A stretch of 64,000 nt of DNA. Origin: a bacterium (GTDB lineage Bacteria > Patescibacteriota > CPR2 > UBA1875 > CAIMLA01). Positions 15,998-60,036 of the stretch are shown in pieces. The position numbers and the translations under genes are program-made. Numbering within the stretch: the stretch's first letter is position 1; every line of letters begins with the position of its first letter. The notes below the pieces were generated by a model, which saw only the letters and a program-made list of their open reading frames with translations, had not been told where the DNA came from and made no database searches. Location: assembly GCA_037129835.1 (NCBI GenBank), contig JBAXUE010000002.1:66334-130333 (forward strand), read 5' to 3'.

Positions 15998-16017
15998 AGT
16001 GTCTCCTTTTCTCTCTT

Positions 16018-16103
16018 CGTCATTCTGAACCGAGTGAAGAATCTAGGATTGTATCTGGATTCCTGCTTACCGCAGGCAAGCTTCTTTCCGACTCAGGATG
16101 ACG
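16018..16103. repeat. 86-bp GC-rich MITE/REP-like element (GTCATCC family) with imperfect terminal inverted repeats
   Basis: The ends CGTCATTCTGAACCGAGTG and, reverse-complemented, CGTCATCCTGAGTCGGAAA are inverted repeats. An internal CCTGCGGTAAGCAGG hairpin is present. 45 of 48 nt are identical to the copy at 19816-19863 in opposite orientation. Confidence 0.65.
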
Positions 16104-16122
16104 ATTTGGGGGTGTTAAATTA

Positions 16123-18852
16123 TTATTTTGATACTAATTTCTCTGCTACTAGTTGGGTTATTCTCTTTGGAGGTTTATTTCTAGCTTTAAATGTTTCTTG
16201 AACCAAAAGATAGAATAAAGCGATAAATATTGCTATTGCCCAGGCAGAGAAGTTAAGCGGTGCCATGCCAGCGAATTTCTGGAGAAAAGGAACGTAAATT
16301 AATAAATTTACAAACATAAAAGACACGGCCAGTCCTATCCAGACTCTTTGTGAACCAAGTAGTTTCCATACTGGTTTTCTGGCTGACCGTATAGAAAAAG
16401 CGTTGGCATATTGGCACAGGGCCATGGTGGCATAAGTGACAGTAGTGGCCGCAATATATGTTTCGTTATTCGGAAAAGCACTCCCCCAACGCCAACCATT
16501 TAGATATCCATATATGCAAAATCCCGCCACCGAAAAAACACCCAGCATTATACCACTCCTTACGATGTAGTAGATAGTATCTGTACCAAAGAGGATATCC
16601 TTTTTGTCTCTTGGCGGTTTTGACATCACATCATCCTCTTCTATATCGCCTGCAAGTGCGAGAGCCGGAAAAGCCTCTGCGCAGAGGTCGATTAATAGTA
16701 TTTGGATAACAAAAATCGGAGGCAAGCCGATAACTAGCCCAAAAACAACAGCAGTGAACTCCGCCATATTTGCAGTAAAGACATATTTTGTTGCTTTTTT
16801 GATATTGTCATAGACGATTCTGCCCTCTTTTACCGCCCAAACAATAGAAGAAAAACTGTCGTTCAGCGAAACCATTTCTGCAGCTTCTTTGGTAACATCT
16901 GTTCCTGTCAGCCCCATCGCTACGCCAATATCCGAGGTCTTTAGAGCCGGAGCGTCATTGACGCCATCGCCTGTGACCGAGACGATATTTCCATGTGCTT
17001 GTAGTACTTTCACTAGCCGCAGCTTGTGGATTGGGTCTACCCGAGAGAATATTACATCTCCAGTTTCGATAATCTGATATAGTTCATCGTCTTTCAATTG
17101 ATTTAGTTCATTACCGTCGATGACGCGCGGATCTATGTTCAGCTTGATTCTCTTACCTACGGCTGCTGCTGTCAGGCCATAGTCGCCAGTCGCCATTATT
17201 ATCTTTATTCCAGCTTCTTTAGCGATTCTGACAGTTTCTGCTACATCTTCTCTTGGTGGATCGATAATACCAAGAAGTCCTAAGAAAATCAGGTCAGAAT
17301 CGATTGTACTGCCATCCATAGGCTTATAGGCAGAGGCTATTACTCTCAGCGCATCCTTGGAATATTCGTCATTTGTTTTTTCGATATCTTTTCTATCAGC
17401 TGTAGTTAGTTCGACTGCTTTGCCACCCTTAAGTATTTTTGTACATTTTTGTAAGATAACCGCAGGCGCCCCTTTGACGTATACCGTCTTTTCACCTTTG
17501 TAGTCGACTGCCTTGGCCATGAATTTTCGTTCTGAAGTAAAGGGTATTTCCTCTACACTTTTCGCTTCCCTCTGCATCGTATAAGTATCTAGTCCTGCCT
17601 TTTCTGCTGCCACAAGCAGAGCGATCTCGGTTGAGTCACCGATATAATCTGGTTTGTGATGATTTTTTGTATCGACTTCGGCATTATTGGAAATAGTTAC
17701 AGCTTGAAACAATATATTAGTTTCATCCAGACAGCTTCTGTTGCACAGTTTTCCTTCACGGGTGATTTCCCCGTCGAGACTATATCCCACGCCCTTTATA
17801 TGATAATTTTCGTTATTAAAGTAAATCTCTTTTACGGTCATCTGGTTCTTGGTTAGGGTGCCTGTTTTGTCAGTAATGATGTAGTTTGCCTCACCTAGGG
17901 TTTCCACTGCCGAAAGTCTGCGGATAGCAGCCTTTCTTCTGGTCATTTTTTGGATGCCGATCGCAAGTGCGATAGACACCGTGGCTGGTAAACCCTCAGG
18001 GACAAGAGAAGATGCTACTCCGATGGCAAAACGAAAAGATTCTAGTGCGTCAAAGTGACCCTTTGCTACTGTATCGACTACGAGCAGGATGAGAACGACC
18101 CAGAAGGTTGCTTTGGCTACAGTCTTGGCAATCCGGTCTATCTCTATTTGTAGCGGTGATTTTGATACCTTTTGGGTCGAGGTTATTTTGGCAATTTTAC
18201 CAAAGCTAGTTTCCATTCCGGTGGATACCACCACACCGATACCGTTACCAGAGATTACGTCAGTTCCCATAAATACAGAGCCTGTTACATCGACTACGTT
18301 TCTCTCGTTCTCCTCTGTTACCATCGCTACTTTGGATTGTGTTTCAGATTCTCCTGTAAGTGCTGCATCATTCGTTTCTAACTCATTTGCAGATATTAGC
18401 CGGATGTCTGCTGGTATCTTCATTCCCTCGGAAAGAACAATAATGTCACCGGGTACGATATCCATGGCGTCGATAGTCTGGCGGTCATTGTCTCTGATAA
18501 CGGTTGCAGACTGAGCGACAAATTTCTTAAGAGCGTCTATCGCTTTATCAGCTTTGTATTCTTGGAAAAAACCAATAGTGCTATTGGCAATCACAACTAA
18601 AAAGATGACAATTGCATCTTTAGGTGCTCCTAGAATATATGCGAGACCGGCGGCCGTCAGAAGAACTATCGCTAGAAGGTCAGTGAATTGGACAAGAAAT
18701 TTGACTATATATGGAGTTCGTTTTTGCTGTACTAGCTTATTGTGGCCGTATTTATTGAGACGCGTTGTAACTTCTGCGCTCGAAAGACCTTTGTCAGTCG
18801 TCTTTAGAGTATCTAATACTTTAGTAATATCGTCATAGAGCAATGAATTCAT
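16123..18852 (-). CDS. P-type cation-transporting ATPase (P2-type, Ca2+/Mg2+-like)
   Basis: Cation_ATPase_N-like start, phosphorylation site DKTGTLT, hinge GDGVNDAPAL, and about 10 TM helices. Confidence 0.9.
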   Translation of the reverse strand: MNSLLYDDITKVLDTLKTTDKGLSSAEVTTRLNKYGHNKLVQQKRTPYIVKFLVQFTDLLAIVLLTAAGLAYILGAPKDAIVIFLVVIANSTIGFFQEYKADKAIDALKKFVAQSATVIRDNDRQTIDAMDIVPGDIIVLSEGMKIPADIRLISANELETNDAALTGESETQSKVAMVTEENERNVVDVTGSVFMGTDVISGNGIGVVVSTGMETSFGKIAKITSTQKVSKSPLQIEIDRIAKTVAKATFWVVLILLVVDTVAKGHFDALESFRFAIGVASSLVPEGLPATVSIALAIGIQKMTRRKAAIRRLSAVETLGEANYIITDKTGTLTKNQMTVKEIYFNNENYHIKGVGYSLDGEITREGKLCNRSCLDETNILFQAVTISNNAEVDTKNHHKPDYIGDSTEIALLVAAEKAGLDTYTMQREAKSVEEIPFTSERKFMAKAVDYKGEKTVYVKGAPAVILQKCTKILKGGKAVELTTADRKDIEKTNDEYSKDALRVIASAYKPMDGSTIDSDLIFLGLLGIIDPPREDVAETVRIAKEAGIKIIMATGDYGLTAAAVGKRIKLNIDPRVIDGNELNQLKDDELYQIIETGDVIFSRVDPIHKLRLVKVLQAHGNIVSVTGDGVNDAPALKTSDIGVAMGLTGTDVTKEAAEMVSLNDSFSSIVWAVKEGRIVYDNIKKATKYVFTANMAEFTAVVFGLVIGLPPIFVIQILLIDLCAEAFPALALAGDIEEDDVMSKPPRDKKDILFGTDTIYYIVRSGIMLGVFSVAGFCIYGYLNGWRWGSAFPNNETYIAATTVTYATMALCQYANAFSIRSARKPVWKLLGSQRVWIGLAVSFMFVNLLIYVPFLQKFAGMAPLNFSAWAIAIFIALFYLLVQETFKARNKPPKRITQLVAEKLVSK

Positions 18853-18967
18853 AAATATATTTTATGCTATATATAGATAATAATGAAGAGAAATAAATAC
18901 AAATGGAGAAGGTCCGCGCCGGGAAGACGCTTTATATAGCTACCTTCTCGTTGCGGACCTCTTGGAC

Positions 18968-19342
18968 CTAGTCTTCGACCTCATCGATCCCGAGCATCGC
19001 TCTCGCGACTTCGATATCGGGTGCCAGGTCGAAGTTGTTGGTGTACTTCACCAACTTCTTAGAGACCTTCTCGTCCTCGGGGACTACGATCACAAACGGA
19101 ATGTGATCATTCATCAGGTACCGACCAAAGCTGTAGATACGGCCGATAGCCGCGCTACAAAGCTTGGTGACCATTGCGAGGTCGAGAATGACTCCGGCCT
19201 TGCGGGCCTTTATCAGAGTCTTGTCGAACTCGAGTCGGAGAACCGGCTCGACACTGTCGTCGAGATTTCCTCCGAGCTTCAGGATCACGGCCTTGTGGCC
19301 GTTACCTGCTTCGAACTTTTCGATACTGTGTACACAATGCAT
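18968..19342 (-). CDS. STAS domain protein (anti-sigma-factor antagonist SpoIIAA-like) in GC-rich module
   Basis: AVILKLGGNLD…GVILDLAMVTKLCSAAIGRI matches the STAS pattern v.l.G.LD…viDls.v.fiDSsGlg.l. Strong SD GAGGGGGA 4 nt upstream. Coding GC is visibly higher than in neighbouring genes. Confidence 0.55.
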   Translation of the reverse strand: MHCVHSIEKFEAGNGHKAVILKLGGNLDDSVEPVLRLEFDKTLIKARKAGVILDLAMVTKLCSAAIGRIYSFGRYLMNDHIPFVIVVPEDEKVSKKLVKYTNNFDLAPDIEVARAMLGIDEVED

Positions 19343-19351
19343 ATATCCCCC

Positions 19352-19666
19352 TCAGTCGGTTTCTAGTATTGCCGGGTTTTCGGAAAAGAACCATGAACCC
19401 CACAGCTCTCTCTTGACACCTACTTGCAGCGAATGTACCCACATTCCCCCTATGGGGATTTCGAAAGAGGGAAAGAAATCGAGTTCGATCTCTCCCTGCC
19501 AAACCACTTTCTCACGGTCAACGATATCGTAGATGACAAGTGAGTCACCGGTCTGGAGCAAGTGCAGGCCATCATAGCCGCCTTGCCTTCCTTCTTCTTC
19601 GAAGGCCCAGAAACCTCCTTCGGTTCCGGTCTCGAAGTAGAAATGTAACGTACCCACAAGTTTCAT
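19352..19666 (-). CDS. Hypothetical 105-aa protein (GC-rich), first gene of STAS two-gene module
   Basis: Start re-assigned to MKLVG, which has SD GGAGGTG 6 nt upstream. The longer ORF prefix overlaps repeat elements. No recognisable motif. Stop lies 9 nt before the STAS gene. Confidence 0.45.
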   Translation of the reverse strand: MKLVGTLHFYFETGTEGGFWAFEEEGRQGGYDGLHLLQTGDSLVIYDIVDREKVVWQGEIELDFFPSFEIPIGGMWVHSLQVGVKRELWGSWFFSENPAILETD

Positions 19667-19711
19667 GTGGCTCACCTCCCAAACGATGTTATCGTGATTG
19701 AGACAAAGAGG

Positions 19712-19740
19712 ATTATACAACATAATGAGTGTTCTGTAAA
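19712..19740 (-). promoter_or_regulatory. Near-consensus sigma-70-type promoter TTTACA-N17-TATAAT
   Basis: On the - strand: TTTACAgaacactcattatgttgTATAAT, positioned about 45 nt upstream of the 105-aa gene start. Confidence 0.5.
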
Positions 19741-19758
19741 GATAAACATATACTCCCC

Positions 19759-19863
19759 AGTCATCCATGGCCCGCTTTCGTCATCCTTGCGAACGCGAGG
19801 GTCTCTTTTGGCAACGTCATCCTGAGTCGAAACGAAGCTTGCCTGCGGTAAGCAGGGATCCAT
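19759..19863. repeat. Cluster of three GTCATCC-family repeat units (second terminus of the inverted pair)
   Basis: AGTCATCCATGG, CGTCATCCTTGCGAACGCGAGGGTCTC and CGTCATCCTGAGTCGAAACGAAGCTTGCCTGCGGTAAGCAGGGATCC. The last unit is 45/48 identical to the inverted copy at 16.06 kb. Confidence 0.65.
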
Positions 19864-20230
19864 GTCCACTCTCCTTATCGTTCGAATTCTAATGAGAACT
19901 ACAGATACAGGTTATATGTAGTTTTCATAGGATCTACGTAATCCAACCATCAGTTCGAAAAGAAAGAGAGTAAAGTAACGAAGTTATAATAAATAACTTC
20001 CGGTATCGGCTTGTTGTTATTTATTATATTTGAGCTACTGCAACGAATGATACTTTAAAGAATCTGTTAGGTTGGGCTTTTTGCACCACTTTTATTAAAA
20101 AAGTGGCATATATTATAATATAACGTTTAAAAGATATTCGCTAAAGTCGTAATTGCTCGACCTCGAAGATAGTCGAGTACACGGTACCAAGGCGATTTTT
20201 CATTGGGATTAACGCTTAAATATACCGCCC

Positions 20231-20335
20231 CTTTGTCATCCCTGGTCGCACTTGTCCTCCAGTAGCTTGTTAGCGAAGTAGGAACCCCAGTCTGCCCGAG
20301 CCGTACGCTCGTGTCGGCCAGGGGGATCTCTCTAG
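20231..20335. repeat. Extended GTCATCC-family repeat (TGTCATCCCTGGTCGCAC…GGCCAGGGGGATCTC)
   Basis: Shares the GTCATCCCTGG…CCAGGG(G)GATCTC termini with the copies at 21.28 and 34.77 kb. GC-rich relative to the flanks. Confidence 0.45.
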
Positions 20336-21254: not shown

Positions 21255-21280
21255 AATTACTTTTCCTCTCCTGTGTCATC

Positions 21281-21311
21281 CCTGGCCACAAACCAGGGAT
21301 CTCCTGCTTAT
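21281..21311. repeat. GTCATCC-family hairpin repeat TGTCATCCCTGGCCACAAACCAGGGATCTCC
   Basis: Near-identical to the reverse complement of 34762-34792 (TGTCATCCCTGGTCACAAACCCAGGGATCTC). Confidence 0.55.
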
Positions 21312-22625: not shown

Positions 22626-24428
22626 TTACTTCTTATCGAGTATTTTTACATTTTTTTTAGCATAGTCAGCAGAGAGCATTTTGATCCCCGTATCTTTAAA
22701 AGAAACTCGAATTTCATCATCAGATATTCCCTCTACTTCGCCTATTCCGAAATCAGGATGACTGATAAGATCCCCAACTTCCAAGAAAGTTTCCGACTCT
22801 TCATCGATGTGTTCTACCACAGGTTCTTCGTCTGACCTATCTTCTACTCCTTTAGTATTTCCACTAAATATCGCTCGAAGTATTTTTTCTTCTGACGACT
22901 GAATAGCTTTTTCCTCTTCTACAGAAACAACTGTTTTTTCTACTTCTGTAACAGGTTTCTGGAAGTCATCTCCACCAGGAAGCTCTAGTGCCTTTATCTC
23001 AGGTAGGGCTATGTGACCACCAATATCACCATACATTCCTACAGTATTTGTGAGTACTCTGCTAAGCTGCTTTTCTCTCTCACACCATATCTTTTCGAAA
23101 GCGTTTCGCTCTTTGCGTATACCACTTTCCATAGCTCCAAAAGCCTCTACTATGGCCTCTACCCTTTGTTTAAACTCATTGCCCGTAAGGTATGTATATA
23201 GGTAGTCCATCTTGTCGTTCTTGTTGACTGCCAAGGCCTTCTCTCTATAGACATCCACCAGGCCTTTTCTCAGCACTGTAGCGAGTGCAATAGCATATTT
23301 TAACTCACATACCCAAATCTTTTCTATTTGTACGAATCCATGAGCATCTCCAGGCATAGCTGCTGTTACTATCACTCCGATATCTGCCTTTATAGCCCTC
23401 ATATCTTCTTTTAACTTATCTACCCAACCTGCACTCCAAGACTTGGTTTGCTTGGATTCCCAAGCTATTTTGCCACACAGAGCACCGGCTTTGTTTTGTA
23501 CTAGCTGTACCACATCAGCACCGTTTACACCCTTTGGTACTGGCGCGATAGCGTCAAAAGGAAAAGCGTCGGTTAGCACTTGTTCTAGCTCGAGCTCCTG
23601 AACTTCGCCTTGGGTTTGCATGGAGCCTTGCTCCAGCTTCCTAGCTAGATCGTCCTTTGCCCTGCTGACATTCGATAGCTTCATCTCTAGCTCAGCAATC
23701 TTTTTGTGCTGTTGCTCTTCGGCCTTTCTACCCGCTTCTTCTTGAATCTTCTGACGCTCCTCGTCTAGCTGTCTCATCTTCTCTAGCTCAAAGCTCTGCT
23801 TGTCTTCCTCTAGGGTAATCTTTTGCTTTCGAAGTTCCAGCTCTTTTTCCTGAGCTTTACGGAGCTTCTCGTCCTTTTCATTCATTTGCTCTTGGAAACT
23901 ACGTTTCTCTAGCTCCAGCTCTTTTTGAGTTTCGTCGGCTAGCTCTTTTTTGAGCTCTAGGCGATAGGCCTCAGTCTTCTCGGCGTATTTCTTCTCGACT
24001 TCGAGCTCTATCTTGATTTTTTCCTCTTCTAGCCTAGTCTTTTCTTTTCTGAGCTCTATTTCACTCTCTTGAGCTTTTTCGAGCTTTTCATTTTTTTCCA
24101 AAATTAACTGCTCAAAATTATGTTTTTCTAGCTCTAGCTCTTTTTTTGCCTCTATTGATAATTCTTTTTTGAGTTCTAGCCGATAATTTTCTATCTTTTC
24201 GGCATACTTTATCTCAGCCTCTAGTTCTATCTTGGTTTTCTCTTTTTCTATCTCAGATTCTCTGGTGGCCAGAAGCCTATTAGTCTGCTCTAGCTCATCT
24301 TTTAGCTTTTGCTGTTCACTACTTAGCTCTTTGCGAACCTTTAGTTCCATCTGCTCTTTTAGGATGTCGTCGATGTCTATATCCCAACCGCATTTTGGGC
24401 ACTTAATGTTTTGTTCTGAATCTGTCAT
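22626..24428 (-). CDS. DUF2130-like protein: N-terminal Zn-ribbon, long duplicated coiled coil, conserved C-terminal alpha/beta domain
   Basis: A CPKC…C start, then about 250 aa of E/K/L heptad-rich sequence containing two ~73-aa near-identical blocks. The C-terminal region (AIAPVPKGVNGADVVQ…IWVCELKYAIALA) resembles DUF2130. Confidence 0.5.
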   Translation of the reverse strand: MTDSEQNIKCPKCGWDIDIDDILKEQMELKVRKELSSEQQKLKDELEQTNRLLATRESEIEKEKTKIELEAEIKYAEKIENYRLELKKELSIEAKKELELEKHNFEQLILEKNEKLEKAQESEIELRKEKTRLEEEKIKIELEVEKKYAEKTEAYRLELKKELADETQKELELEKRSFQEQMNEKDEKLRKAQEKELELRKQKITLEEDKQSFELEKMRQLDEERQKIQEEAGRKAEEQQHKKIAELEMKLSNVSRAKDDLARKLEQGSMQTQGEVQELELEQVLTDAFPFDAIAPVPKGVNGADVVQLVQNKAGALCGKIAWESKQTKSWSAGWVDKLKEDMRAIKADIGVIVTAAMPGDAHGFVQIEKIWVCELKYAIALATVLRKGLVDVYREKALAVNKNDKMDYLYTYLTGNEFKQRVEAIVEAFGAMESGIRKERNAFEKIWCEREKQLSRVLTNTVGMYGDIGGHIALPEIKALELPGGDDFQKPVTEVEKTVVSVEEEKAIQSSEEKILRAIFSGNTKGVEDRSDEEPVVEHIDEESETFLEVGDLISHPDFGIGEVEGISDDEIRVSFKDTGIKMLSADYAKKNVKILDKK

Positions 24429-24514
24429 CTTATCTCCTTATTCTTTTTAGCATTTATTAATAGCTCCTGCATTATACACCCCAATAATGCCAAAAGTGCC
24501 CATTTACGAAAAAA

Positions 24515-24757
24515 TTAATCAAAAAGTATAAAAGGATTCATCTCCGCCGGTGTTTTCCAGCGTATTTTATACTTCTTCCTAAGTATTTCTTTTTTCTTAT
24601 GCCAAAAGGTATGGCAATATCCCAAATCACCTTCTTTGATTGGCGAATCTTTCAACGCATCCGTGACTTCATTATTGATTTTTGCGAAAATATCACGATA
24701 CCTCGGGTCTCGCTCTATTGGATCGTTAGCTATGTCGTCATCGTACATATTAATCAT
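24515..24757 (-). CDS. Hypothetical 80-aa protein
   Basis: ORF only. Basic C-terminus. Confidence 0.3.
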   Translation of the reverse strand: MINMYDDDIANDPIERDPRYRDIFAKINNEVTDALKDSPIKEGDLGYCHTFWHKKKEILRKKYKIRWKTPAEMNPFILFD

Positions 24758-24768
24758 CTTTGTTCTTC

Positions 24769-25110
24769 TTATTCCGGAGCTTGAATTGGCTTCGCTTCTC
24801 GTCTTTTCTTTATGTAGCTAACTAGGTTAATTATATCTACAACGAATGACCCAAGCAAAATCACTACGAAAAAGAATAGACCAAGTGCATAAGAGATGGC
24901 ATCACCCCAGGCCTGGTTTGGTAATGTGCGTATATAGGTTCCGAATAGAAAAAATCCGACGGCTACTACGACGCTAGTTATCTTTAGACCTATTGATAGA
25001 TCTCCGAGTTTTTTCCCGGTCTTGATATAGATAATGATCGAAGGTGCGACCATAGCCGCGATAGCAAGCAAGAGTATGAATAGCCCAGTAATTAGACCCA
25101 TAAGCACCAC
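24769..25110 (-). CDS. Hypothetical small membrane protein (3 TM)
   Basis: Three hydrophobic helices and a basic C-terminus. Confidence 0.4.
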   Translation of the reverse strand: MVLMGLITGLFILLLAIAAMVAPSIIIYIKTGKKLGDLSIGLKITSVVVAVGFFLFGTYIRTLPNQAWGDAISYALGLFFFVVILLGSFVVDIINLVSYIKKRREAKPIQAPE

Positions 25111-25146
25111 CCTCCAGACGCGATACGTAACGATTTTGTTATGATA

Positions 25147-26121
25147 TTACTTTTGTACATGTTCCTCTCCTTTTGCATGAATTATATTTTCCATATTATC
25201 ATACAGATAAACAAAATATTTTTCTATTTCATTCATTTTATTTGGTAACATATTTTTTGTAAGAGCTGCCGATTCTGCAAAAAACTCTTCGAAATATTCT
25301 GCATATTCAAGAATAAAGTCGTCAGTGAACTCTCCCTTAATTATACATTCATCATAGAGTGGTTTGATCGCCTTTACTCTGGTCTTTAGATATGGGGTAA
25401 AGGGATTATCTATTAGATATCCCATCCCTGGTGGGTTGTAATACATATTGCCTTCGTCATCTTTGATAAAGAAGAACTGTCCGAATTCGGTATTTGCTAG
25501 TATTCCTCGTTCTAGTTGAGCGCCAGTCCCGTTTTCTGTAGCGTAAAGATTTTTAAAATAAAAATGTCCGATTTCATGTGCAAGTAGATATTCGAGTAGC
25601 GCCTCTTCTTTGTTATCTGCTTCTTTTACTACATCTGGCATCTCGTATGGATAGTCATAGGTATCAAATAGCTTTATATCGCCAAAGTGCTCGCTTTCTC
25701 TGTCGGAAATGGCATGTGCCCGTACCCTCAACCACTCATCACCCTCAGGTAGCTCGTTGTTTGCTTTGGCTTTTTCGTATTCTTCCCTGTTATAAAGCTT
25801 CTTTTCATTCTCTATTCCTGGGGTGTAGACATACATTATTACATTATCATAGATTATTTTTGATATACCGACTTTTTTAAAATCCTCTAATTCGTAATTT
25901 CTCGCGATGAACTCCAAGGCGCTCTCTCCTAGATTCTTGTTTTCTTCAAATCCTTCGAAACCGAGATATGCTCGAAAATCATCTAGCTTCTCCTTTGATA
26001 TTTCATCATGAGTTTCCGTATAGACACTACTAGTAGGCGCACTTTCTTTAAGTTTTGTTCTTTCCCACAGCTTACTAGCCTCACGCTCAGCAGGTCCTAT
26101 TGGTAATGGTATATGTTCCAC
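25147..26121 (-). CDS. Hypothetical cytoplasmic protein with HExxH (AHEIGHF) zinc-binding motif
   Basis: HEIGH motif in the middle of an acidic 324-aa protein. No other recognisable domain. Confidence 0.4.
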   Translation of the reverse strand: MEHIPLPIGPAEREASKLWERTKLKESAPTSSVYTETHDEISKEKLDDFRAYLGFEGFEENKNLGESALEFIARNYELEDFKKVGISKIIYDNVIMYVYTPGIENEKKLYNREEYEKAKANNELPEGDEWLRVRAHAISDRESEHFGDIKLFDTYDYPYEMPDVVKEADNKEEALLEYLLAHEIGHFYFKNLYATENGTGAQLERGILANTEFGQFFFIKDDEGNMYYNPPGMGYLIDNPFTPYLKTRVKAIKPLYDECIIKGEFTDDFILEYAEYFEEFFAESAALTKNMLPNKMNEIEKYFVYLYDNMENIIHAKGEEHVQK

Positions 26122-26140
26122 TATTATCCTTTCTTTGTAT

Positions 26141-26812
26141 TTATTTCTCTTTCGTCACCAAGAACGGAAAAACTCTGTTCATTTCATCGTTCCGAAGGAT
26201 AAATGCCGCCTCGAGGAAAGTATACAGTAAATCTTTTGTATTTTTCAGTACATCAGCACTACAAAAGACGACGAAATCAGCTTCGTTTATCTCTGAGGGC
26301 GATTGGATGTGGATCTTGTTTCTCAAGTTCTTGAGCTGTTTCAAATCATTTCGATAAAAGGCAAATGACAGCCCGAATGTCTGCTCCTGCGCAGACTTAT
26401 AGAGTAAGCTCTTAAAATCATGGATATCGTCATAGCTGGCACCTGTTTCTTTGTGCTGGATATACAGAATAGACTCTATTATTAGTGCCGATATCAGAAC
26501 AAATGTCTTCACATTCTGCCCATAGAGAGAGCTGGTGAGATATAGCTGCTTGGTGCATTCGTCTAGATAGTGAAGATATTGGAGATTATAGGCGATGTTA
26601 CTAAAAGCAGCATACTTTGGGTCATCATCAGAAAATTCGTAATCTATCAGCCGTGGGAATATAGTACTGCGATAGAAATCTATTGAGTTTGGCAGAAACT
26701 TGTTCGAACCCTCCTCTTTGGAACAAACCCGACACAAGATATTAGGCTTGTCTGGATTGTACAAGTCCTGCTTTACAAAGCCTGAATTGCTGTGTTGTTC
26801 TGTTTTAGTCAT
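26141..26812 (-). CDS. Hypothetical protein at the edge of defense island (N-terminal CxxC)
   Basis: 223-aa ORF with an N-terminal CRVC pair. Helical C-terminus. Confidence 0.4.
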   Translation of the reverse strand: MTKTEQHSNSGFVKQDLYNPDKPNILCRVCSKEEGSNKFLPNSIDFYRSTIFPRLIDYEFSDDDPKYAAFSNIAYNLQYLHYLDECTKQLYLTSSLYGQNVKTFVLISALIIESILYIQHKETGASYDDIHDFKSLLYKSAQEQTFGLSFAFYRNDLKQLKNLRNKIHIQSPSEINEADFVVFCSADVLKNTKDLLYTFLEAAFILRNDEMNRVFPFLVTKEK

Positions 26813-26873
26813 TTTTCCCTTTTATAAAAGAATACATTGTTCTATCTTACTTTGTAAAAAATTATTAACTAAA

Positions 26874-28229
26874 CTAGTCTCTGCCACCCCTTTGTCTATT
26901 ACAATATCGGTGGACTAATCTGGCGTTTGATAGCTTGGTTTCTCCACCTCGCCAGTAAAACTCAATATGATCAACCTCAGAATCGTCTAAAACACGTATT
27001 TTTTGACCACATATTTTACAGGTTGAATCAGTGTCAAAAAGTTGCTTTTTCTCGTCGTGTGAATAGTTTCTTGTCTGTGACTTGGAATAATCTACGATTT
27101 TCCTCAAAGATTCTAGCCATTTCTCAAATCTGTATTGCACATTTTCTGGCTTATCTGTTGATGACTTCAAGGAATCTTCAAATTTCTTGACAGCTGTCAT
27201 TAAGTGTAAAAGTTCTTCGCGAATAGAATCAAGGTGAGGGATAATTTCGTTTTTTTGATACATCGTGAAACCCCACATTACGATGTCAAATAAGCCTTTG
27301 TTTATTTTTGTATTTTCCCACTTTCCGTTTGAGTCAGATTCTTCGCCTACAACAAACCTACGAAAAGCATTGTCACCAAATACTGAGCGAGTTAGGTCAA
27401 CAGATTTTTTAAAAACCTCACGAAGTTCTTTTGCTTTTTCTTCATTTAGATTTTGGTTATTATGCATTTCTTGATTTAGAAACTGTCTCATGGGTGCTTT
27501 GTATTTTAAGTATGAGTTATTATAAAAAGCGAAAAATCGTAATAAAAGCTCTCTATCAATCATTCTTATGGACATAGCTGGTGATTTTAATAATGTTTGA
27601 TATTCTTTATTTTCGGCAAGCTCGATTAGTAAGTCGTTATATTTTCCACGGTAAATACAGTTTCTGAGTTCCTGGTCGTTCAGCTTCACTGCGCCAGTAT
27701 TTAGTCTTTCGAAAACCTCAAATCTAACATTGATATCAGAATCCTTTTTGATTCTGATAAATGGTATAAGATAAGAATCAACTTTTCGCTGTGTTATTTT
27801 GTCTAGTTCCTTAAATGATTTCCTGTTTAGTCCTGTCAAAACCTTTAATCCCGAAAGGGCAAATTTTTCGTGCTTGTCTTGAAAGTACCCGTCCTTAAAA
27901 GAAAAGATAGAAATTAGTCTTTGTTGCCCGTCTATTACTGATTGGGTACCGTCATCTTCTTCGGCAGTGTATATTACTGGTATCGGGACTCCCAAGAGAA
28001 TAGATTCTATCAGTCTACTAGCTTTGCTTTTATCCCAGACATATCCTCTTTGAAAGTATGGTCTTACATCAAGTTCCCCTGCCTTGTAATCAGAATATAA
28101 GTCTTTTATGGCTCTACTGGGGTTGTCAAAGGTAATTCTTCTTTCATCCTCAGGTATATCAAAAACCAGTGGTTCGTTGTCATTATTGTCTTCTTCAAGA
28201 ATAACGTCATTATTATCTATTACCGTCAT
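26874..28229 (-). CDS. GmrSD-like type IV restriction protein: DUF262 (ParB-like NTPase/nuclease) N-domain + HNH/DUF1524 C-domain
   Basis: VIDGQQRLISIF is the DUF262 hallmark. The C-terminus CKICGQ…DHIEFYWRGGETKLSNARLVHRYCN is an HNH motif. Confidence 0.8.
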   Translation of the reverse strand: MTVIDNNDVILEEDNNDNEPLVFDIPEDERRITFDNPSRAIKDLYSDYKAGELDVRPYFQRGYVWDKSKASRLIESILLGVPIPVIYTAEEDDGTQSVIDGQQRLISIFSFKDGYFQDKHEKFALSGLKVLTGLNRKSFKELDKITQRKVDSYLIPFIRIKKDSDINVRFEVFERLNTGAVKLNDQELRNCIYRGKYNDLLIELAENKEYQTLLKSPAMSIRMIDRELLLRFFAFYNNSYLKYKAPMRQFLNQEMHNNQNLNEEKAKELREVFKKSVDLTRSVFGDNAFRRFVVGEESDSNGKWENTKINKGLFDIVMWGFTMYQKNEIIPHLDSIREELLHLMTAVKKFEDSLKSSTDKPENVQYRFEKWLESLRKIVDYSKSQTRNYSHDEKKQLFDTDSTCKICGQKIRVLDDSEVDHIEFYWRGGETKLSNARLVHRYCNRQRGGRD

Positions 28230-28285
28230 AATTCTCCTTTACTTTGATCTATCGTTTTTGCTTATCAAGTTTTTTCATTGGTTCG

Positions 28286-29449
28286 CTATTTATTTCCCTT
28301 GGCACGGTTATGTGTTTTACAAAGCATCTCACAGTTATTGATATCTGTGGCGCCACCTTTACTCCATGCTGTAACATGGTCAGCATCCATTTCGGTAAGA
28401 CTCCAGATTTTTGTCTTGTTGGCGTCGTGACCGATTACGCAATTCGGACAATTTGAAATGCCTTTAGATTTAGCGGTCGTAGTTTGTGACGAATATACCG
28501 CTTTTTTAGTTGCCTCATCAAAAACACGAACTTCAAGTAGTTTCTTTTCATTAGACCCACCTAGAATATATTCAAATATTCCCTTTCGATTTTTTATGTA
28601 TGGGTCTCCATAAAGCTTTTGTACGGCCAATGACACTTTTGCAGGATCATAGGCTTTTGTATGAAATTTTTTATAAAGTCGACCCCAATCCAGGCCTCGC
28701 ATTTCACTTTCAACATCTATAAATACACCAGAAACCCATTCTATTACGCTTTTAAAATATGCTTTTAACTCAGTGATATTGTTATCAAAGCGGTGACGAC
28801 TCATATATTCGCCGTTATTACCACAACTAATCCAGTCTAAGGCTCTCTCTAGAAATTCCTGTCTGTTGGCACTGCCAGTTACATAAGCACTCCATTTTTG
28901 AATGTTGGCATTTTGACTATTACTGAATTCCTCTTTACCAAGTGTGACAAATGGACCAGAATAAACCGCATTTAATAGTTCTTGATTATTTAGCGGTACA
29001 CCGGCAATGTTTATGGTTTTGAACCACTCTTTTATTTCACTTTCTTCGCCCTCGCATTCGTATATAAGAAGCTCAGCGTTCATGATTTTAGCCTGCTTAT
29101 CTGAAGCAATTCCACTGAAGTATTGTTCCATGCCGTTTTCGTCTTTTATGGCAAATTTGTTATAAACGAATCGTCCGATACTAGTGATACGTTGTTGTCC
29201 GTCCAATACTTCTAAGTTGTCAGTGCTCACTTTGTTAAAATATATTAAGCCCAGCGGATAGTCTTTGAGTAATGAGTCAATGACCGCGACGTCTTTTTTA
29301 CCATCAGCATAGATGTAGTTACGTTGATACTCTGGCTGAATAGTGAGCTTGCCAGAGAGTCCGAACAAACCCTTGCCTTCATGCTGGTTATACACAAATC
29401 CTTCACATATATTTCTTACGGTTATGTTAGTTACTAAAGTAGTTTTCAT
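28286..29449 (-). CDS. Second DUF262 + HNH (GmrSD-like) protein, paralog of upstream gene
   Basis: [14 protein letters not shown] (DUF262). The C-terminus CPNC…[25 protein letters not shown] is an HNH motif. Confidence 0.75.
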
Positions 29450-30648
29450 GCTATACCTTTCTTGTGTTTGATTAAAATCCTAGCGAATGGAACCACAACA
29501 GTTTCATCTTTTATCATATATAAATCACCGTTCACCGTTCCTCTTTTTTGCACTTCTTTCCGATACTTTTTATGCTCAGGTTTATACGGTTTGACTCCGA
29601 TGGATAAGCCCAGGTTTGCTATTCCCAAACCAATAATATCAAATTGTTCAGGAGAATATTTGTCAAGGAAACTAATTGGCACGCCCATAATACCCTTAAA
29701 GTCTCCAGGAATATGTTTAACGAAAGGAACTTCTATTGCATTAAAATTATCATAATTATCAAAAGATCTTTTAGTGCCAAATTTTATAACGTCTGACAAT
29801 TTCATTAATGGTAAGAATTCGTGAAGCCTTCCGTGGTCAAGATTAGTAAACCAGCGAACACCTTGGACTCTCGTGATGTAAACTTTCTTACCATTTTCAT
29901 CCGTCCGTATTTCGCGTACTTGCTCTAGATTGGCAATATCTTCTGGTATTTCATAAAACATTGCTCCACCATTCACTTTATGATTATTGCCAAGCCAAAT
30001 CTTGTTATCCTTAATTAATGGAAAGACTTCTTTATAAGTAATAGCGTTCATACTACCAATTATTAAGAACTTTTTTTTGTACTCAATAAGTTGTTTTAAG
30101 TACTCGCGGAACAAACTGAAAGGCGGGTTAGTTACCACTATATCAGCCTGCTTTAGTAGCTCAACACACTCGTTGCTCCGAAAATCTCCGGCTGCGTATT
30201 TATCATCGCCAAGTAAAAGCGAATAAGCATTATTGTCATGTTCTAAAAGCCATTTCACATCATTAAGGTTGGTTATGCCATCTTTATTAAGGTCTGAAAC
30301 CTCATTGATCTCAATTTTAAATGCTTTTTTATTTTTTCGATTAGAAAGTGTCTTATTTTTACCCATTTCTTCGAAACCCGGTATTTGTATCTGTGTTTGT
30401 ACAATCGGCGAACCAACGTAGCTTGTCGTTATCAACTTTTTTAAGCCAAATTCCTTAAATTTATTTGCAAAATACTTGAAGAAATTACTTTCAAATGGGT
30501 CATCGCAGTTGCAATAGACTATCTTGCCGCGAAAAACATCAGGATCGTAATCAATGTAGGCTTGGATTTCCTTCTGAATATCTTGATATTGAGTATAAAA
30601 CTCGTCGTTTTTAGTCTTTTTTGCGTTATGTAAATTTTTTTGTGCCAT
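29446..30648 (-). CDS. N6-adenine DNA methyltransferase of the M.EcoRI family
   Basis: The N-terminus …[19 protein letters not shown]…[18 protein letters not shown] and the catalytic [15 protein letters not shown] closely resemble M.EcoRI as I remember it. Its stop overlaps the downstream DUF262 gene start (ATGA). Confidence 0.8.
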
Positions 30649-30660
30649 TTAAAACCTTAT

Positions 30661-31128
30661 TTATTTTTCAAAGCAAATTGGATTAAATATCTTTTCAGGA
30701 AAATCGTTATCTCCAATTTTATATTTTAATTCACCGTTTGTTCCATGTACTGAATATTTTTCTCGATTGCGCTTTGACACAGAAATTGATTTGACTCCGG
30801 ACTGGCTAGGCCTTAACAACCTCTCAATTTCGTCATAGTTTAAGCAACAAACTCCTGCATCGTAACATACAAGTAGGACAAAAACCTTCTCAAACTTTGA
30901 TTTTAGCTCTAATAGTTTTTCGAGATGATTCTCCGAAAATGTAAAGCTCCAGGGGATTAACCGACTCTCAGTATATTTAACATATAAGCCACTTTCTCTG
31001 AGCTGAGAGAGAATCTTAAAACTAGAATTGTCATCATCAACATAATCACTAACACCAAGACATCTTTGGTCTTGAATTATTTTTAGTAAAGCTGCCCCGT
31101 AATATAGTTGATATTTAAAATTTGCCAT
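30661..31128 (-). CDS. Hypothetical 155-aa protein between Z1 NTPase and methyltransferase (candidate effector/specificity partner)
   Basis: 7-nt gap to the Z1 gene and 13-nt gap to the MTase gene. No confident motif; there is a possible acidic cluster after a beta-strand (VFVLLVCYDAG…NYDEIE). Confidence 0.4.
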   Translation of the reverse strand: MANFKYQLYYGAALLKIIQDQRCLGVSDYVDDDNSSFKILSQLRESGLYVKYTESRLIPWSFTFSENHLEKLLELKSKFEKVFVLLVCYDAGVCCLNYDEIERLLRPSQSGVKSISVSKRNREKYSVHGTNGELKYKIGDNDFPEKIFNPICFEK

Positions 31129-31134
31129 AATAAT

Positions 31135-33018
31135 TTATCTTAGCCTATAGTTTGCCTTTTTAAGGCTATCTTTAAAATAGTAAACAAATCTACACTTTCC
31201 TGCCTCGTTTCTGATCAACATAATATGGTGCTTTGCATTGGGAAAAGCGACCATTTCTGTACCACCAAAAACACCCCTACTTCTGTATAAAAAGTCCTTA
31301 TATTCAAGGTCATCTGTTTTTGAAACCATTCTTATTGGATGGAATGCTATGTCCTTGTCTGCAGTCATTCCACTGTATACAATAAAATTAATTAGAAATA
31401 GAGGCACCACACTGCCACCGTAAAGCCGGTTAACTTCTTTTAGCTTTTGGATATTACTTATTCCTTTTTTACTAATAATATCTGAAAAAATGCTAGCGTA
31501 ATCAAACATAGGAAAATACATTTCGTTTTTGTCAGTTAATATATTCTTCTTGTCGATACTAGAACTAGAGGCGGGCTTAACTCTTTGGCTTGAAATCCAA
31601 ACTGGTGCTGCACCCTCGTCATTGCTTTTTAATGATTTTAAAGATAAATCATGAAAAATAAAACAACGGTGCCAGTCCTCGAAAAGTGATTTTGGTATTG
31701 AGAGTTCAAAGAAGTCTTTGTATTTGCCTCTACTGCCGAACATTCTAGCTCTTTGGATATAAGTGTCTTGTTGAATCCTGTGTTTAGCAGTTCGTGTGAA
31801 GAACATGCCCAAAAGATTCTTTATTGTTAAGCCCCGGGAAATTATATTTCCACCAATTATTATTGTAAAAAGAGCTGGTGCATTAGTTGGGTCTTCTTCC
31901 ATTTTATTATTTGAGTTAATAACATAAACTTTTTTCTTATTAACATAATCTTTGACAAATGTTGTCACTTCTTTTGCTGCTATATCACCAAATCTTTCTT
32001 CTGCAATACTGTGTATTATTCCAAGGTAACGTTCCCATTTGGGACCCTTATTTGTATCTGCCAGTGCGTCAAAAAAATTATCTACAATTTTTTTATCTCT
32101 TTCGTGTTCACTTTTAATGCCACTTGTATGAATAATAAAAGCAAAATTAACATCATCATTATTCGCATTTTGTTCTACGAGCTTTTCCTTGTACTCGGGA
32201 TTTATATTTAAATAAGAAGCATTAACTAAAAAGCTTGCTAAAGCTTCATGTAAATATGATGGGTCATCTCCATTCTCAGGAAGTATATTCACCATGTATT
32301 CAACTTCGGTTATTTTTTCTAGATTAATTGGAAAAAAAAAGTCTTTGCCTACATAATTTTTATGAGAATCAAAAAATACCCATTCTTCAGATAAATTATC
32401 AAAAGTATTGTTAAGATCTAGTCGTGCTGGAGTGGCTGTTACCCCAACGTAGGTGCCGTCTCTTCGAAGTAATTTGCCGATTTCGTTATTAATTGCCGTT
32501 ACTTCATCTTTATTTATTTTAGAATTTGGGCTGGCATAATCAGCCTCGTCATCAATTATTATTAAACCACTTCTATTTCTTAGTTTTTCGTTTAAATTTG
32601 TTAAATTGCGGATATTTTTCTTTGAAAAAATTATAACCTGCCCATCATTTAAGTCTTCTTCAAGAAAAGCCCTGCTAGACATGGTATCTGGTGTAGGGTC
32701 GATACCTGAACTAGTAAATCTTTCGAGATTTTGAAGTTCAAGCTTTTTATTGTCATTCATGAGAATAACAATAGTGTTGTTGCCAATATCAAGTAATTTT
32801 GCTGTAAGCGATATCATCATTTCGGTTTTGCCACTTTGTGGCTCACCGTAAATCACAAATGATGTTATACCCTTTTGAATTTTTTCTACTGAATCTGAAA
32901 CAGCGTTTTCAATTTGAAAAGTATCAATACCCTTTTTATCTCTAAGGAAATTAATTCTTTTCTCATATCGGCTGTTTCTTCTATTTTCTGAGTCTCTATA
33001 ATCATCTGGATTAAACAT
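31135..33018 (-). CDS. Z1-domain P-loop NTPase (restriction-modification-associated ATPase family)
   Basis: Walker A GEPQSGKTEMM and a Walker B/DEAD-like LIIIDDEADYAS, the pattern I recall for Z1-domain proteins (…QSGKT…DEADxAS). Confidence 0.55.
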   Translation of the reverse strand: MFNPDDYRDSENRRNSRYEKRINFLRDKKGIDTFQIENAVSDSVEKIQKGITSFVIYGEPQSGKTEMMISLTAKLLDIGNNTIVILMNDNKKLELQNLERFTSSGIDPTPDTMSSRAFLEEDLNDGQVIIFSKKNIRNLTNLNEKLRNRSGLIIIDDEADYASPNSKINKDEVTAINNEIGKLLRRDGTYVGVTATPARLDLNNTFDNLSEEWVFFDSHKNYVGKDFFFPINLEKITEVEYMVNILPENGDDPSYLHEALASFLVNASYLNINPEYKEKLVEQNANNDDVNFAFIIHTSGIKSEHERDKKIVDNFFDALADTNKGPKWERYLGIIHSIAEERFGDIAAKEVTTFVKDYVNKKKVYVINSNNKMEEDPTNAPALFTIIIGGNIISRGLTIKNLLGMFFTRTAKHRIQQDTYIQRARMFGSRGKYKDFFELSIPKSLFEDWHRCFIFHDLSLKSLKSNDEGAAPVWISSQRVKPASSSSIDKKNILTDKNEMYFPMFDYASIFSDIISKKGISNIQKLKEVNRLYGGSVVPLFLINFIVYSGMTADKDIAFHPIRMVSKTDDLEYKDFLYRSRGVFGGTEMVAFPNAKHHIMLIRNEAGKCRFVYYFKDSLKKANYRLR

Positions 33019-33241
33019 AGCTCTCCAAATTTAATATATATTATATTCTACTCTCCTTTTGTGCTTATCGCAAGCATAAATTCGGTTTGACGGCTCTAGG
33101 CATCGGATATTGACAACTAAAATACGCGGAGTATAATTATTCATGAAGAGAGCAGTAATGCCTATGTAACGCCGAGTGGAGGCACCTCGATAGAGGGCCC
33201 GTGAAGCGAGGAGCACGAGTATATAGGTCACCTCTTCTTTT

Positions 33242-34661: not shown

Positions 34662-34688
34662 ATTTGCAATATACGCTCGTTTTGTGCC

Positions 34689-34792
34689 TGGGGCAAGACC
34701 CAGGAGGTCATCCTTACGAAAGTAAGGATGACCTCCGGAGGGTAAGAAAGAGATCCCTGGGTTTGTGACCAGGGATGACAACGGGTGTTCCC
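34689..34792. repeat. Cluster of three GC-rich hairpin repeats (GTCATCC family), BIME-like
   Basis: CCTGGGgcaagaCCCAGG; GTCATCCTTACgaaagTAAGGATGAC (a perfect 10-bp stem); GAGATCCCTGGGTTTGTGACCAGGGATGACA. Confidence 0.6.
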
Positions 34793-34976
34793 ACGAAAAA
34801 TAACTCAGTCCGCAGACCGACACTTTGAGAAATATGTATGCTGTAGCTCGGCTACTAAAAGTATTTTTAAAAGAGAGTTGTTATTTTTCTTGAACTTAAC
34901 TCCATTTTCTTTCAAGAGAAAATGGATAATAAATAATTAATAAATTTTTAGTTAGAATAAATTGGTATATTGCGAA

Positions 34977-35546: not shown

Positions 35547-35577
35547 TTTACTCCTATTTTGTGCTTAGAGCAAGGGA

Positions 35578-36881: not shown

Positions 36882-37370
36882 CGATTGCCAGAAATTGCGT
36901 TAAACGAATTTCTTAATGAGTTGAAGGAGTCGATTTTCCTGAACCTGGCGCCACCTGCTTTCAAGAGGAGGTGGCAATTAATAAAATTAATCTGCCGTAA
37001 TCTATAACTATTTAACTACTTATTTTGATACCTTTGTCTTTCGTCACAAAGGTATCGCCAAAAGACTCTTTTCATGCGGACTCACTGCGGTTCACCGCAA
37101 TGTCTGATAATATTTTGTTTTCAGAAACATCGTTGTCATTGAATCAACTTTCATCAAGTTAGTTATTTACCAATCAAAAAATCTTTCCATTTGGAAAGAT
37201 AAGTTCGACCTTTGAGTTTTCACTCCTTATCGTTCCGCATTTGCGGCTAGCATTGGCACCCATTTGGTGTGGGTTGCCGGCAGGTACCGCCGTCGCGACG
37301 CTATGTCGGTCAGGCATCGGGCTAGTTCCCTATCTGCACTCTTGATATATTTGATTGTAGATATATTATA

Positions 37371-56289: not shown

Positions 56290-56358
56290 AACTAAGTGTT
56301 AATGTTATTTTAATTAGTGCTATGTGTCAATCTTTTCCATTCATGGCTGCCGGTAAAG

Positions 56359-56931: not shown

Positions 56932-56949
56932 ATTATCTCCTTAAATATT

Positions 56950-58095: not shown

Positions 58096-58297
58096 CCTAA
58101 ATCAGGATGACATTTGACAATAAGTTTCTCTAGGTAAACGCCAGTTATGGCGAGTGTCCTATCAATGAGTAAGGCCTTAAACACCCTCCTTTAAGCTTAC
58201 TTGTTGGTAGGGTTCTCCCCGTAACCGCCAGCCAATATTTTGGGCTAGGTAAAGTCTTCGGATCGAGTTACACTAACGGGAGAACTTTGAAACAAAA

Positions 58298-58335: not shown

Positions 58336-58375
58336 ATATTTAAGTGTTTATGACTAGTGGACAAGGAAAAATTAA

Positions 58376-59344: not shown

Positions 59345-59383
59345 ATAAACCCTTAATCTTTTACTATTGCTGGATACTGTTAT

Positions 59384-59938
59384 TTAAATACTAATATGCT
59401 CTATGCCTTCTGCGAGGGCTTTTTCTATTTCTGACACTGTTTTTGTGACAACTTCTTGTGCAAGGGCCTCTTCATCTTTAGTAAATTTCTGTAACACAAA
59501 AGCTTCTGTGGGTATATTATCACATTCTTTTGTTTTGATTCCCATTCGAAACCTGGCAAATTCATCAGTGCCGATACACTCTATGATAGATTTAACACCT
59601 TTGTGTCCCGCAGAGCTACCACCTTGTCTGACTCTGACTACACCAAGCTCGAGATCGATATCGTCATAAGCGACCCAGAGATGTTCAGTATTAATATTAA
59701 AATAACTCATTACAGATTGTATAGCTTCTCCAGATAGGTTCATAAAAGTCTGAGGTTTAAGAAGTTTGATCTTTTCGCCACTTACTATTATTTCGCAGAT
59801 CTCAGCCTTGAACTTTTTCTCAAGCTTAAAATCACCGTCATATTTATCTGCTAGGTTATCAACCGTAGCGAAGCCGAAATTATGGCGTGTGCCGATATAT
59901 TCTTTTCCCGGATTACCAAGTCCAACGATTAGTTTCAT
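59384..59938 (-). CDS. pth: Peptidyl-tRNA hydrolase
   Basis: MKLIVGLGNPGKEY…TRHNFGF signature. Confidence 0.95.
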   Translation of the reverse strand: MKLIVGLGNPGKEYIGTRHNFGFATVDNLADKYDGDFKLEKKFKAEICEIIVSGEKIKLLKPQTFMNLSGEAIQSVMSYFNINTEHLWVAYDDIDLELGVVRVRQGGSSAGHKGVKSIIECIGTDEFARFRMGIKTKECDNIPTEAFVLQKFTKDEEALAQEVVTKTVSEIEKALAEGIEHISI

Positions 59939-60036
59939 GGTTTATGTACTTTCCCCCGTCATGCTGAATTTATTTCAGTATCCCGAGATCCTGAATCGAG
60001 TTCAGGAAGACGCAAAGAGGTGTGCGACGAGTGTAG

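Follow-up and report, generated by a model that had tools for sequence, protein, structure and literature searches.

CGTC-tagged hairpin repeats in a Patescibacteria contig of the CPR2 lineage and their likely partner, the Ssn nuclease

We analyzed a stretch of 64,000 nucleotides (the window hereafter) from contig JBAXUE010000002.1, positions 66,334 to 130,333 of the forward strand, in assembly GCA_037129835.1 of a bacterium of the Patescibacteria lineage CPR2. The named relatives of its topoisomerase I (TopA), at 64–66% identity, are from Candidatus Paceibacterota, Pacebacteria, Kaiserbacteria and Patescibacteria, which places the host in the Patescibacteria (CPR). Short GC-rich hairpins in its intergenic regions had been proposed to be a novel repeat family, not matching any described one. 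We conclude that these hairpins are most probably CGTC-tagged repetitive extragenic palindromic (REP) elements, a class that also includes Neisseria dRS3/NTS, Rickettsia RPE-4/6 and the Ssn-related motifs (SRM), with the Ssn nuclease as their likely partner. They represent an already described superfamily seen in a Patescibacteria genome, not a new kind of element, and the claim of novelty falls away because the units fit the published CGTC-tagged REPs feature by feature (PMC3733652). Prokaryotic REPs have been split into a GTAG-tagged and a CGTC-tagged superfamily (Di Nocera, De Gregorio and Rocco 2013, BMC Genomics 14:522, PMC3733652). In the second, the CGTC terminus is often TGTC (with a variant CCTC), the stem is 8–9 bp long with A and T at its first positions, the loop has 4–5 nt (other lengths occur in some species), and the tail consists of 3 unpaired nucleotides, mostly CCA. 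Head-to-head (HH) dimers, with tags outside, predominate over the rare tail-to-tail (TT) and head-to-tail (HT) forms, and the elements are intergenic, between unidirectional or convergent open reading frames (ORFs), and not associated with a transposase. The superfamily comprises families CGTC-1 to CGTC-4 and counts Neisseria dRS3, Rickettsia RPE-4 and RPE-6 among its members (PMC3733652).

The scattered hairpins are real: reading the window where they had been reported gave 11 related units (U1 to U10b) at six places in five intergenic regions, spanning 16018–60012, and their numbers are well above chance. Common to the units are GTCAT(C/T)C at one end, G(G/A)ATC at the opposite end and an intervening stretch that is complementary. 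GTCATCC occurs 14 times in the window against 4.8 expected, and GTCATCCYTG 4 times against 0.16. A generic hairpin scan requiring only GTCAT is noisy in such AT-rich DNA (17 matches versus ~7 in shuffles), while complete units, defined as GTC, an 8-bp stem starting AT, a loop of 3–12 nt and then C, number 4 against a mean of 0.018 in 500 shuffles, none of which contained more than 1. Chance origin of the units is excluded. Non-coding sequence, 11% of the window, holds 10 of the 14 copies of GTCATCC (binomial P = 2e-7), and with 88.9% of the window coding by public gene calls, none of the 11 units overlaps a single coding base, which agrees with the proposal that the family is always intergenic. 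Also as proposed, the units are GC-rich relative to the genome (the window has 39% GC), and the two spurious ORFs at 15920–16201 (+) and 19672–19869 (−) exist; they contain CLPQASFFPTQDD and CLPQASFVSTQDD, respectively, which are translated repeat units. The possibility that the motif is a tRNA or rRNA fragment was checked, and neither a tRNA nor an Rfam match was found within the window. A partial copy reported at about 58137 is unsupported, since the nearest GTCATCC (58105–58111, −) is without a 3′ arm and could be chance. Three hairpins had been counted at 34689–34792; two of these are family units, and the third (~34688–34705) is a small separate hairpin overlapping a promoter-like site.

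On the strand that reads GTCAT, a unit consists of an unpaired C/T-GTC tag, a stem starting A-T-(C/T)-C, a loop, and an unpaired tail starting with C. An 8-bp stem starting AT is found in five units. U4 (19779–19805, +) reads CGTC-ATCCTTGC-GAAC-GCGAGGGT-CTC, with two T.G pairs in its stem. U7 (21274–21303, +) is intact and single, TGTC-ATCCCTGG-CCACAAA-CCAGGGAT-CTC, and is 94% identical to U9 (34750–34780, −), likewise intact, TGTC-ATCCCTGG-TCACAAAC-CCAGGGAT-CTC. U9 is paired, tag outward, with U8 (34703–34736), a perfect 34-nt palindrome, GGAGGTCATCCTTAC-GAAA-GTAAGGATGACCTCC, which makes a unit on either strand; together they form dimer D. U10a (59957–59984, +), CGTC-ATGCTGAA-TTTAT-TTCAGTAT-CCC, is comparable with TGTCATCCTGAATTTATTTCAGGATCTC, found in Gracilibacteria (loci L112 and L137). 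U10a on the left and U10b (59985–60012, −; CGTCTTCCTGAACTCGATTCAGGATCTC) on the right make up a degenerate HH dimer (E); U10b is degenerate and has its first stem base mutated from A to T. The loop has 4 nt in both U4 and U8 and 5 nt in U10a, and is longer in U7 (7 nt) and U9 (8 nt). The remaining units are shorter or composite. U1 (16018–16046, +; CGTCATTCTGAACCGAGTGAAGAATCTAG) combines a CGTC tag with a basal stem of 5 bp (ATTCT/AGAAT) and the tail CTA, and lies 20 nt upstream of the start of a DUF3467 gene as the left half of HH dimer A. The right half of that dimer is U2 (16056–16103, −), a composite CGTCATCCTGAGTCGGAAAGAAGCTTGCCTGCGGTAAGCAGGAATCCA with its tag outside, 19 nt from the stop codon of a P-type ATPase gene. 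U2 is an inverted copy of U5 (19815–19862, +), itself a composite CGTCATCCTGAGTCGAAACGAAG[CTTGCCTGCGGTAAGCAG]GGATCCA of the GTCATCCTGAG...GAAGGATC type; the two are 94% identical over 48 nt and both carry an extra inner hairpin. The basal stem in U1, U2 and U5 is only 5–6 bp, with the AT start kept. U3 (19759–19779, +; AGTCATCCATGGCCCGCTTTC) is partial, with tag and 5′ arm only. In U6 (20234–20330, +; TGTCATCCCTGG...CCAGGGGGATCTC), the loop is disrupted by a 73-nt insert that has no second copy in any sequence at hand, and the tail ends 1 nt before the stop codon of a DUF2103 gene. Three further units lie just outside the window, upstream of the gene for aspartyl-tRNA synthetase (AspRS; locus L001, 7857–7975).

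Compared across units, the conserved parts are those expected of CGTC-tagged REPs. GTC is present in 11 of 11, and the full C/T-GTC tag in nine; U3 starts AGTC, and U8 starts GGTC because its palindrome runs through the tag. Of the 10 complete units, nine have a tail starting with C (CTC five times, CCA twice, CTA and CCC once each; U8 has GAC), while U3 is partial. Tags face outside in dimers A, D and E and in the L001 cluster, and only U3–U5 are in tandem. The original prediction of a REP- or BIME-like (bacterial interspersed mosaic element) family of short hairpins, often in inverted pairs, is thus borne out by the anatomy. Both flanking genes of every unit are on the minus strand, as are nearly all genes of the contig, and the spacers are hence unidirectional. 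Folded as single-stranded DNA (ssDNA), intact units and dimers give stable hairpins, and the pairs are much more stable than shuffles, with z = −2.8 for dimer A (16018–16103), −4.5 for dimer E and −2.9 for the pair outside the window, and 34700–34785, holding U8 and U9, reaches −24.6 kcal/mol with z = −7.1. Composite units taken alone fold no better than shuffles (U5, z = −0.3).

The same units occur widely in other genomes. An exact-pattern scan with GTCATCCYTGG-N3-14-CCARGGATC, using one genome per species, matched at least 116 genome loci. The matches listed are mostly from Alphaproteobacteria (Agrobacterium, Rhizobiaceae, Anderseniella and a metagenome-assembled genome (MAG) of Rickettsiales), and others come from Coxiellaceae and further Gammaproteobacteria, a Bacteroides MAG, Ca. 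Uabimicrobium and Obscuribacterales; Bacteroidota and Planctomycetota are among the groups represented. At least 13 loci belong to Patescibacteria, including Saccharibacteria, Gracilibacteria, Daviesbacteria, Levyibacteriota and Collierbacteria. Two of the MAG loci from Patescibacteria/Levyibacteriota (L067 and L099) carry GTCATCCCTGGCCGCAAACCAGGGATCCA, which is one base from U7. Among the matches listed, 129 of 132 have C or T before GTC, and the tails include 77 CCA and 26 CTA; the positions that the pattern left free, tag base and tail, therefore agree with expectation for the family. In a census of 341 units covering 0.97 Mb of sequence, the picture was similar: all units were tagged (T before GTC in 203, C in 138), the first tail base was C in 328 and the tail CCA in 191, and pairs were 104 HH, 20 TT and 8 HT. 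A scan of viral contigs with the ATCCCTGG pattern returned 2 matches. Two further arrangements were noted in other genomes. The uncultured Bacteroides MAG MGYG-HGUT-03992 (L027, L034, L124 and L128) has same-orientation units that read GTCATCCCTGGC(C/T)(A/C/T)GGACCAGGGATC, as many as six in 8 kb, most with conserved flanks (GA-ACC before, T-ATCTCA after), a tandem-like arrangement unlike the usual outward-tagged pairs. In locus L018, a canonical unit TGTCATTCCCGCGAAGGCGGGAATCCAG at 13808–13835 stands within a long ORF matching a pseudouridine synthase gene, which represents either an intragenic REP or two genes merged by the ORF call.

The identity of the partner was approached from both the repeats and the protein. 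Ssn proteins are the cd10448 family of small GIY-YIG nucleases (Chenal et al. 2025, Nat Commun 16:2388, PMC11893778). The Neisseria meningitidis member, SsnA, binds the NTS repeat CGTCATTCCCGCGMAVGCGGGAATCYRG solely as ssDNA and on one strand, does not bind the RNA form, and cuts a few nucleotides upstream of the NTS. Its key binding base is the C just 3′ of the palindrome, and its key cutting bases are the three 5′ of the palindrome, GTC; the gene occurs in an NTS-ssnA-NTS arrangement, and an effect on natural transformation has been reported (PMC11893778). That study neither cites the 2013 CGTC classification nor mentions Patescibacteria or the candidate phyla radiation (CPR). When we clustered the ORFs adjoining units in loci selected by repeat, one recurring real protein emerged, a GIY-YIG protein of ~95 aa. 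Every intact copy of it is sandwiched by two outward-tagged units 5–40 bp away, in a Patescibacteria locus (L121, where the protein is MAYYTYILASKKDGVLYIGVTSNLKRR...), a Saccharibacteria locus (L115) and a Rickettsiales locus (L093). In the first two the upstream unit, TGTCATCCCTGGCTTGACCAGGGATCT, has the stem of U7 and U9, and the downstream unit has a different stem. In the reciprocal test, loci were chosen by the protein alone (tblastn against plasmids and chromids), and 16 were fetched; CGTC-type units flank the gene on both sides in 11 of them, ~20–80 bp off and with tags outward, and in two more the gene lies among units otherwise arranged (in Neisseria a dRS3 cluster, in Methylobacterium units whose tags point inward). 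The stem type bordering each gene is that of its own host. The hosts found by tblastn overlap strongly with the 2013 CGTC-REP hosts (Sinorhizobium, Azospirillum, Novosphingobium, Sphingobium, Neisseria and others), and one more ssn gene, in a metagenomic locus (L156/L159), is likewise sandwiched between units. Ssn-like proteins number at least 8000 at E <= 1e-10, some named from Patescibacteria, Berkelbacteria, Saccharimonadales and Gracilibacteria. The link between repeat and ssn was recovered independently here, but it is already published (PMC11893778). The suggestion in the original prediction of a RAYT/IS200-like partner is probably wrong, as CGTC REPs are not RAYT-associated and their documented partner is Ssn.

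From these observations, a mechanism can be proposed. The tag strand would fold when the DNA becomes single-stranded, either in replication or as incoming transforming DNA, and a single-domain Ssn GIY-YIG nuclease would bind the folded hairpin and nick a few nucleotides 5′ of the tag; the ssDNA-specific cutting is assumed by analogy with SsnA (PMC11893778). The ssn gene bordered by repeats, a repeat-gene-repeat unit resembling an insertion sequence (IS), would be the probable source of scattered copies. In the window genome, the copies are few, partly decayed, confined to neutral spots between same-direction genes, and gained or lost among close relatives. We infer that Ssn acts, or formerly acted, on the copies in the window and spread them. 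A further idea, which we regard as possible but doubtful, is that Patescibacteria have their own Ssn/hairpin pairs beyond the SRM definition (stems ATCCCTGG, ATTCCTGC and ATCCTGAA), in which outward-tagged pairs would be the inserting unit, would revisit the same short spacers and would bound swappable cassettes, and which may act with DprA-dependent ssDNA uptake. If it were true, filled and empty sites would offer a tractable route to how CGTC REPs spread.

Such filled and empty sites are present among close relatives of the window genome. Three syntenic loci with conserved gene order were compared: L018 (AspRS 71% identical), one of 5 loci from a metagenome scan for AspRS relatives, L160 (TopA 83%) and L161 (TopA 81%). 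The Der-Pth spacer measures 9 nt in L161; L160 has one HH dimer there, in a spacer of 108 nt, and in the window genome a different dimer (E) occupies a spacer of 98 nt. The spacer between a response regulator gene and AspRS is 108 nt and empty in L161, and is filled in L160, L018 and the window genome with units that differ. The PBP-Der spacer is filled in L161 only. These differences indicate insertion or loss of units over short periods of evolution, often in pairs, with the same short spacers affected repeatedly. At one of these sites (L160 860–1000 versus L161 1290–1300), a 119-nt repeat-bearing insertion is flanked by an 11-nt direct duplication, TTTTCGTTTAC / TTTACGTTTAC, of which the empty site in L161 has one copy. 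No duplication is seen at the remaining filled/empty pairs, and a consistent target duplication cannot be claimed. Over all five element regions, the remaining contigs of this population show 100% identity and therefore give no information on mobility.

Several results weigh against placing the window units in this class or with this partner. Around half of the units are degenerate or composite (U1, U2, U3, U5, U6 and U10b). The ATCCCTGG units U7 and U9 exceed, with their 7–8 nt loops, the 4–5 nt of the 2013 CGTC REPs, and the tails are mostly CTC, not CCA. The tag strand of the census units has no excess of G.T over A.C (20 versus 32); the sequences therefore give no independent hint as to the strand used. 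The published SRM string, HGTCWYN(0-2)YYVSBRHN(0-5)WNVSBRGN(0-2)RNCYNB, matches nothing in the window or L001 and has one match in L018. Hidden Markov model (HMM) searches and Pfam lists gave no ssn gene in the window and its 20 kb of flanks (the window, L001, L006 and L155, ~84 kb of the 372-kb contig) or in the syntenic loci of the three relatives. Repeat spread driven by Ssn, moreover, has only been hypothesized in the literature and never demonstrated (PMC11893778). As for the SRM string, it misses the window units because their stems (CCCTGG and others) fall outside its YYVSBRH positions, and by inspection the unit directly upstream of ssn in L121 and L115, with its CCCTGG stem, fails the string as well; the string is thus narrower than the biology it was built for, and the window units are outside the letter of the SRM definition but inside its biology. 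A protein-database search for the ssn gene of the window genome gave as its most promising cluster, by source mix, P0007, which comes from other samples. We also considered a GIY-YIG protein encoded in the window at 34977–35546 (−) as the partner nuclease and rejected it: it has no Ssn similarity beyond the generic Pfam domain, is not Ssn-type by HMM, BLASTP or NCBIfam, and has no unit upstream. The protein has 189 aa; its GIY-YIG domain (Pfam E = 2.7e-7) is C-terminal, its N-terminal half of ~100 aa is without assignment, and its gene lies ~200 nt upstream of U8/U9.

Among other explanations, the one that survives best, though we consider it unlikely, is that the hairpins act mainly at the level of RNA, as terminators, 3′-end stabilizers or 5′-untranslated-region regulators, and that their repetition reflects convergent or co-opted use. 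Position speaks for such a role: all units lie between same-direction genes, several of them 18–20 nt upstream of a start or right after a stop, and in both the window genome and L018 units upstream of AspRS stand between a −10-like TATAAT and the start codon. Two units are terminator-like, with the tail CTCTTT; only U4 and U9 have a full terminator score, and a third listed site (21294–21306) lies at the 3′ end of U7, where it forms a small hairpin. The 2013 authors also favored transcribed REPs (PMC3733652). However, the orientation of the units is mixed (7 plus, 3 minus and 1 palindromic) while the neighboring genes are all on the minus strand, terminator-like sites are not enriched (18 versus 14.0 +/- 3.6), and most units are without a T-run. 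The empty orthologous spacers in close relatives, such as the 9-nt Der-Pth spacer of L161, imply that the neighboring genes do not need the hairpins. RNA folding also leaves the conserved unpaired GTC and C unexplained, and the RNA form is not bound by SsnA (PMC11893778). Side effects on neighboring transcripts may nevertheless occur, and a secondary RNA role would be compatible with CGTC-tagged REPs acted on by Ssn.

Much less probable is that these are classical REPs or REPINs mobilized by RAYT, the IS200-like tyrosine transposase of the Y1/HUH type. These share with the window units 5′-tagged short hairpins, inverted doublets, intergenic location, and gain and loss at orthologous sites, but the tag here is YGTC and not GTAG, and in the 2013 survey no RAYT was flanked by CGTC units even in species that encode one (PMC3733652). 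No Y1_Tnp domain, nor any other Y1 or DDE transposase domain, is listed by Pfam for genes called in the window and its flanks, a Y1 transposase was not found in the syntenic loci of the three relatives either, and the gene that is sandwiched by such units, in Patescibacteria and elsewhere, is a GIY-YIG nuclease. The weakest alternative, that the units are miniature inverted-repeat transposable elements (MITEs) derived by deletion from DDE-type ISs with the outward CGTCATCC ends as terminal inverted repeats, can draw on pairs with inverted termini of 10–11 nt (CGTCATTCTGA...TCAGGATGACG at 16018–16103) and on the 11-nt direct duplication at the response regulator-AspRS site of L160, single in L161, but is barely credible given that the Der-Pth filled sites and window dimers A, D and E have no duplication, that single units are common and show the full conserved architecture, that the ends recur across phyla with variable stems, and that no IS with these ends was seen while the bounded gene is ssn.

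The reading as CGTC-tagged REPs has practical consequences for annotation. The public call of the AspRS gene begins 120 nt too early, inside the repeat cluster (L001 7871–7990), and the true start is the ATG at L001 7991, with a GAGGAG ribosome-binding site. The hairpins thus cause annotation errors in CPR MAGs, and recognizing them as CGTC REPs or Ssn-type motifs permits masking. While knowledge of the class itself is unchanged by our finding, the 2013 CGTC-REP catalogue and the 2025 Ssn system are extended to Patescibacteria, the SRM string is seen to miss CPR variants, and the filled and empty orthologous sites are raw material for the question of how CGTC REPs spread.

Other features of the window surround the repeats. 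The sole long repeat pair in the window, 16047–16103 versus 19815–19871, has 57-nt arms that are 88% complementary; it contains U2 and U5, whose tags face inward, and encloses 16123–19666, with the P-type ATPase gene and two small ORFs. GC content is 0.42–0.48 across 15–21 kb compared to 0.37–0.40 nearby. The P-type ATPase block at 16.1–19.7 kb looks like a REP-bounded, possibly acquired gene cassette. Between repeat sites C and D, Pfam matches at 22626–33018 (DUF2130, GmrSD_N+HNH, EcoRI_methylase and ResIII/SWI2_SNF2/Z1) make up a defense- or restriction-type run that looks like a defense island. A direct repeat with three copies at 73–80% identity (33045–33074, 34668–34697 and 35545–35574) reads CTTGC-N17-TA(G/T/A)A(A/T)T on the minus strand, directly upstream of three consecutive minus-strand genes, and resembles a promoter common to all three. 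Another small hairpin repeat, TTTTCTTGAACTTAACTCCATTTTCTTTCAAGAGAAAATGG, is found at 34885–34932 and 36934–36981, and a close copy stands beside CGTC units in the PBP-Der spacer of L161 (~6290–6350); it may be a terminator-type repeat that travels with REP units. Finally, 40064–43846 (−) encodes a protein of 1260 aa with no Pfam match on record.

Comparison with known systems places the window units among three sets of repeats. The CGTC-tagged REP superfamily has in common with them the tag, an AT-starting stem of ~8 bp, a short loop, though a longer one in U7 and U9, and the 3-nt tail, as well as HH dimers, location in spacers between unidirectional ORFs, the lack of a nearby transposase, and spurious ORFs with false N-terminal gene extensions. 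The window units differ in their host phylum, Patescibacteria/CPR, which was outside the 2013 coverage, and in their few copies, many of them degenerate or composite, such as U2 and U5 with an inner hairpin and U6 with its insert. GTAG REPs and REPINs with RAYT, as in E. coli, Pseudomonas and Stenotrophomonas, are likewise tagged hairpins in inverted doublets, recognized as ssDNA by a nuclease whose single-copy gene is flanked by repeats; they differ in the GTAG tag and in the HUH/Y1 fold of the nuclease versus GIY-YIG, and no RAYT was found in the window and its flanks. The NTS/SRM repeats, with NTS written as CGTC-ATTCCCGC-GMAV-GCGGGAAT-CYRG, are the same overall repeat as the window units, having GTC before the palindrome and C after it, as in all complete units but the palindromic U8. 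They border variable genes, and the ssn gene of Patescibacteria MAGs likewise lies between outward-tagged units, the upstream one with the stem of U7 and U9.

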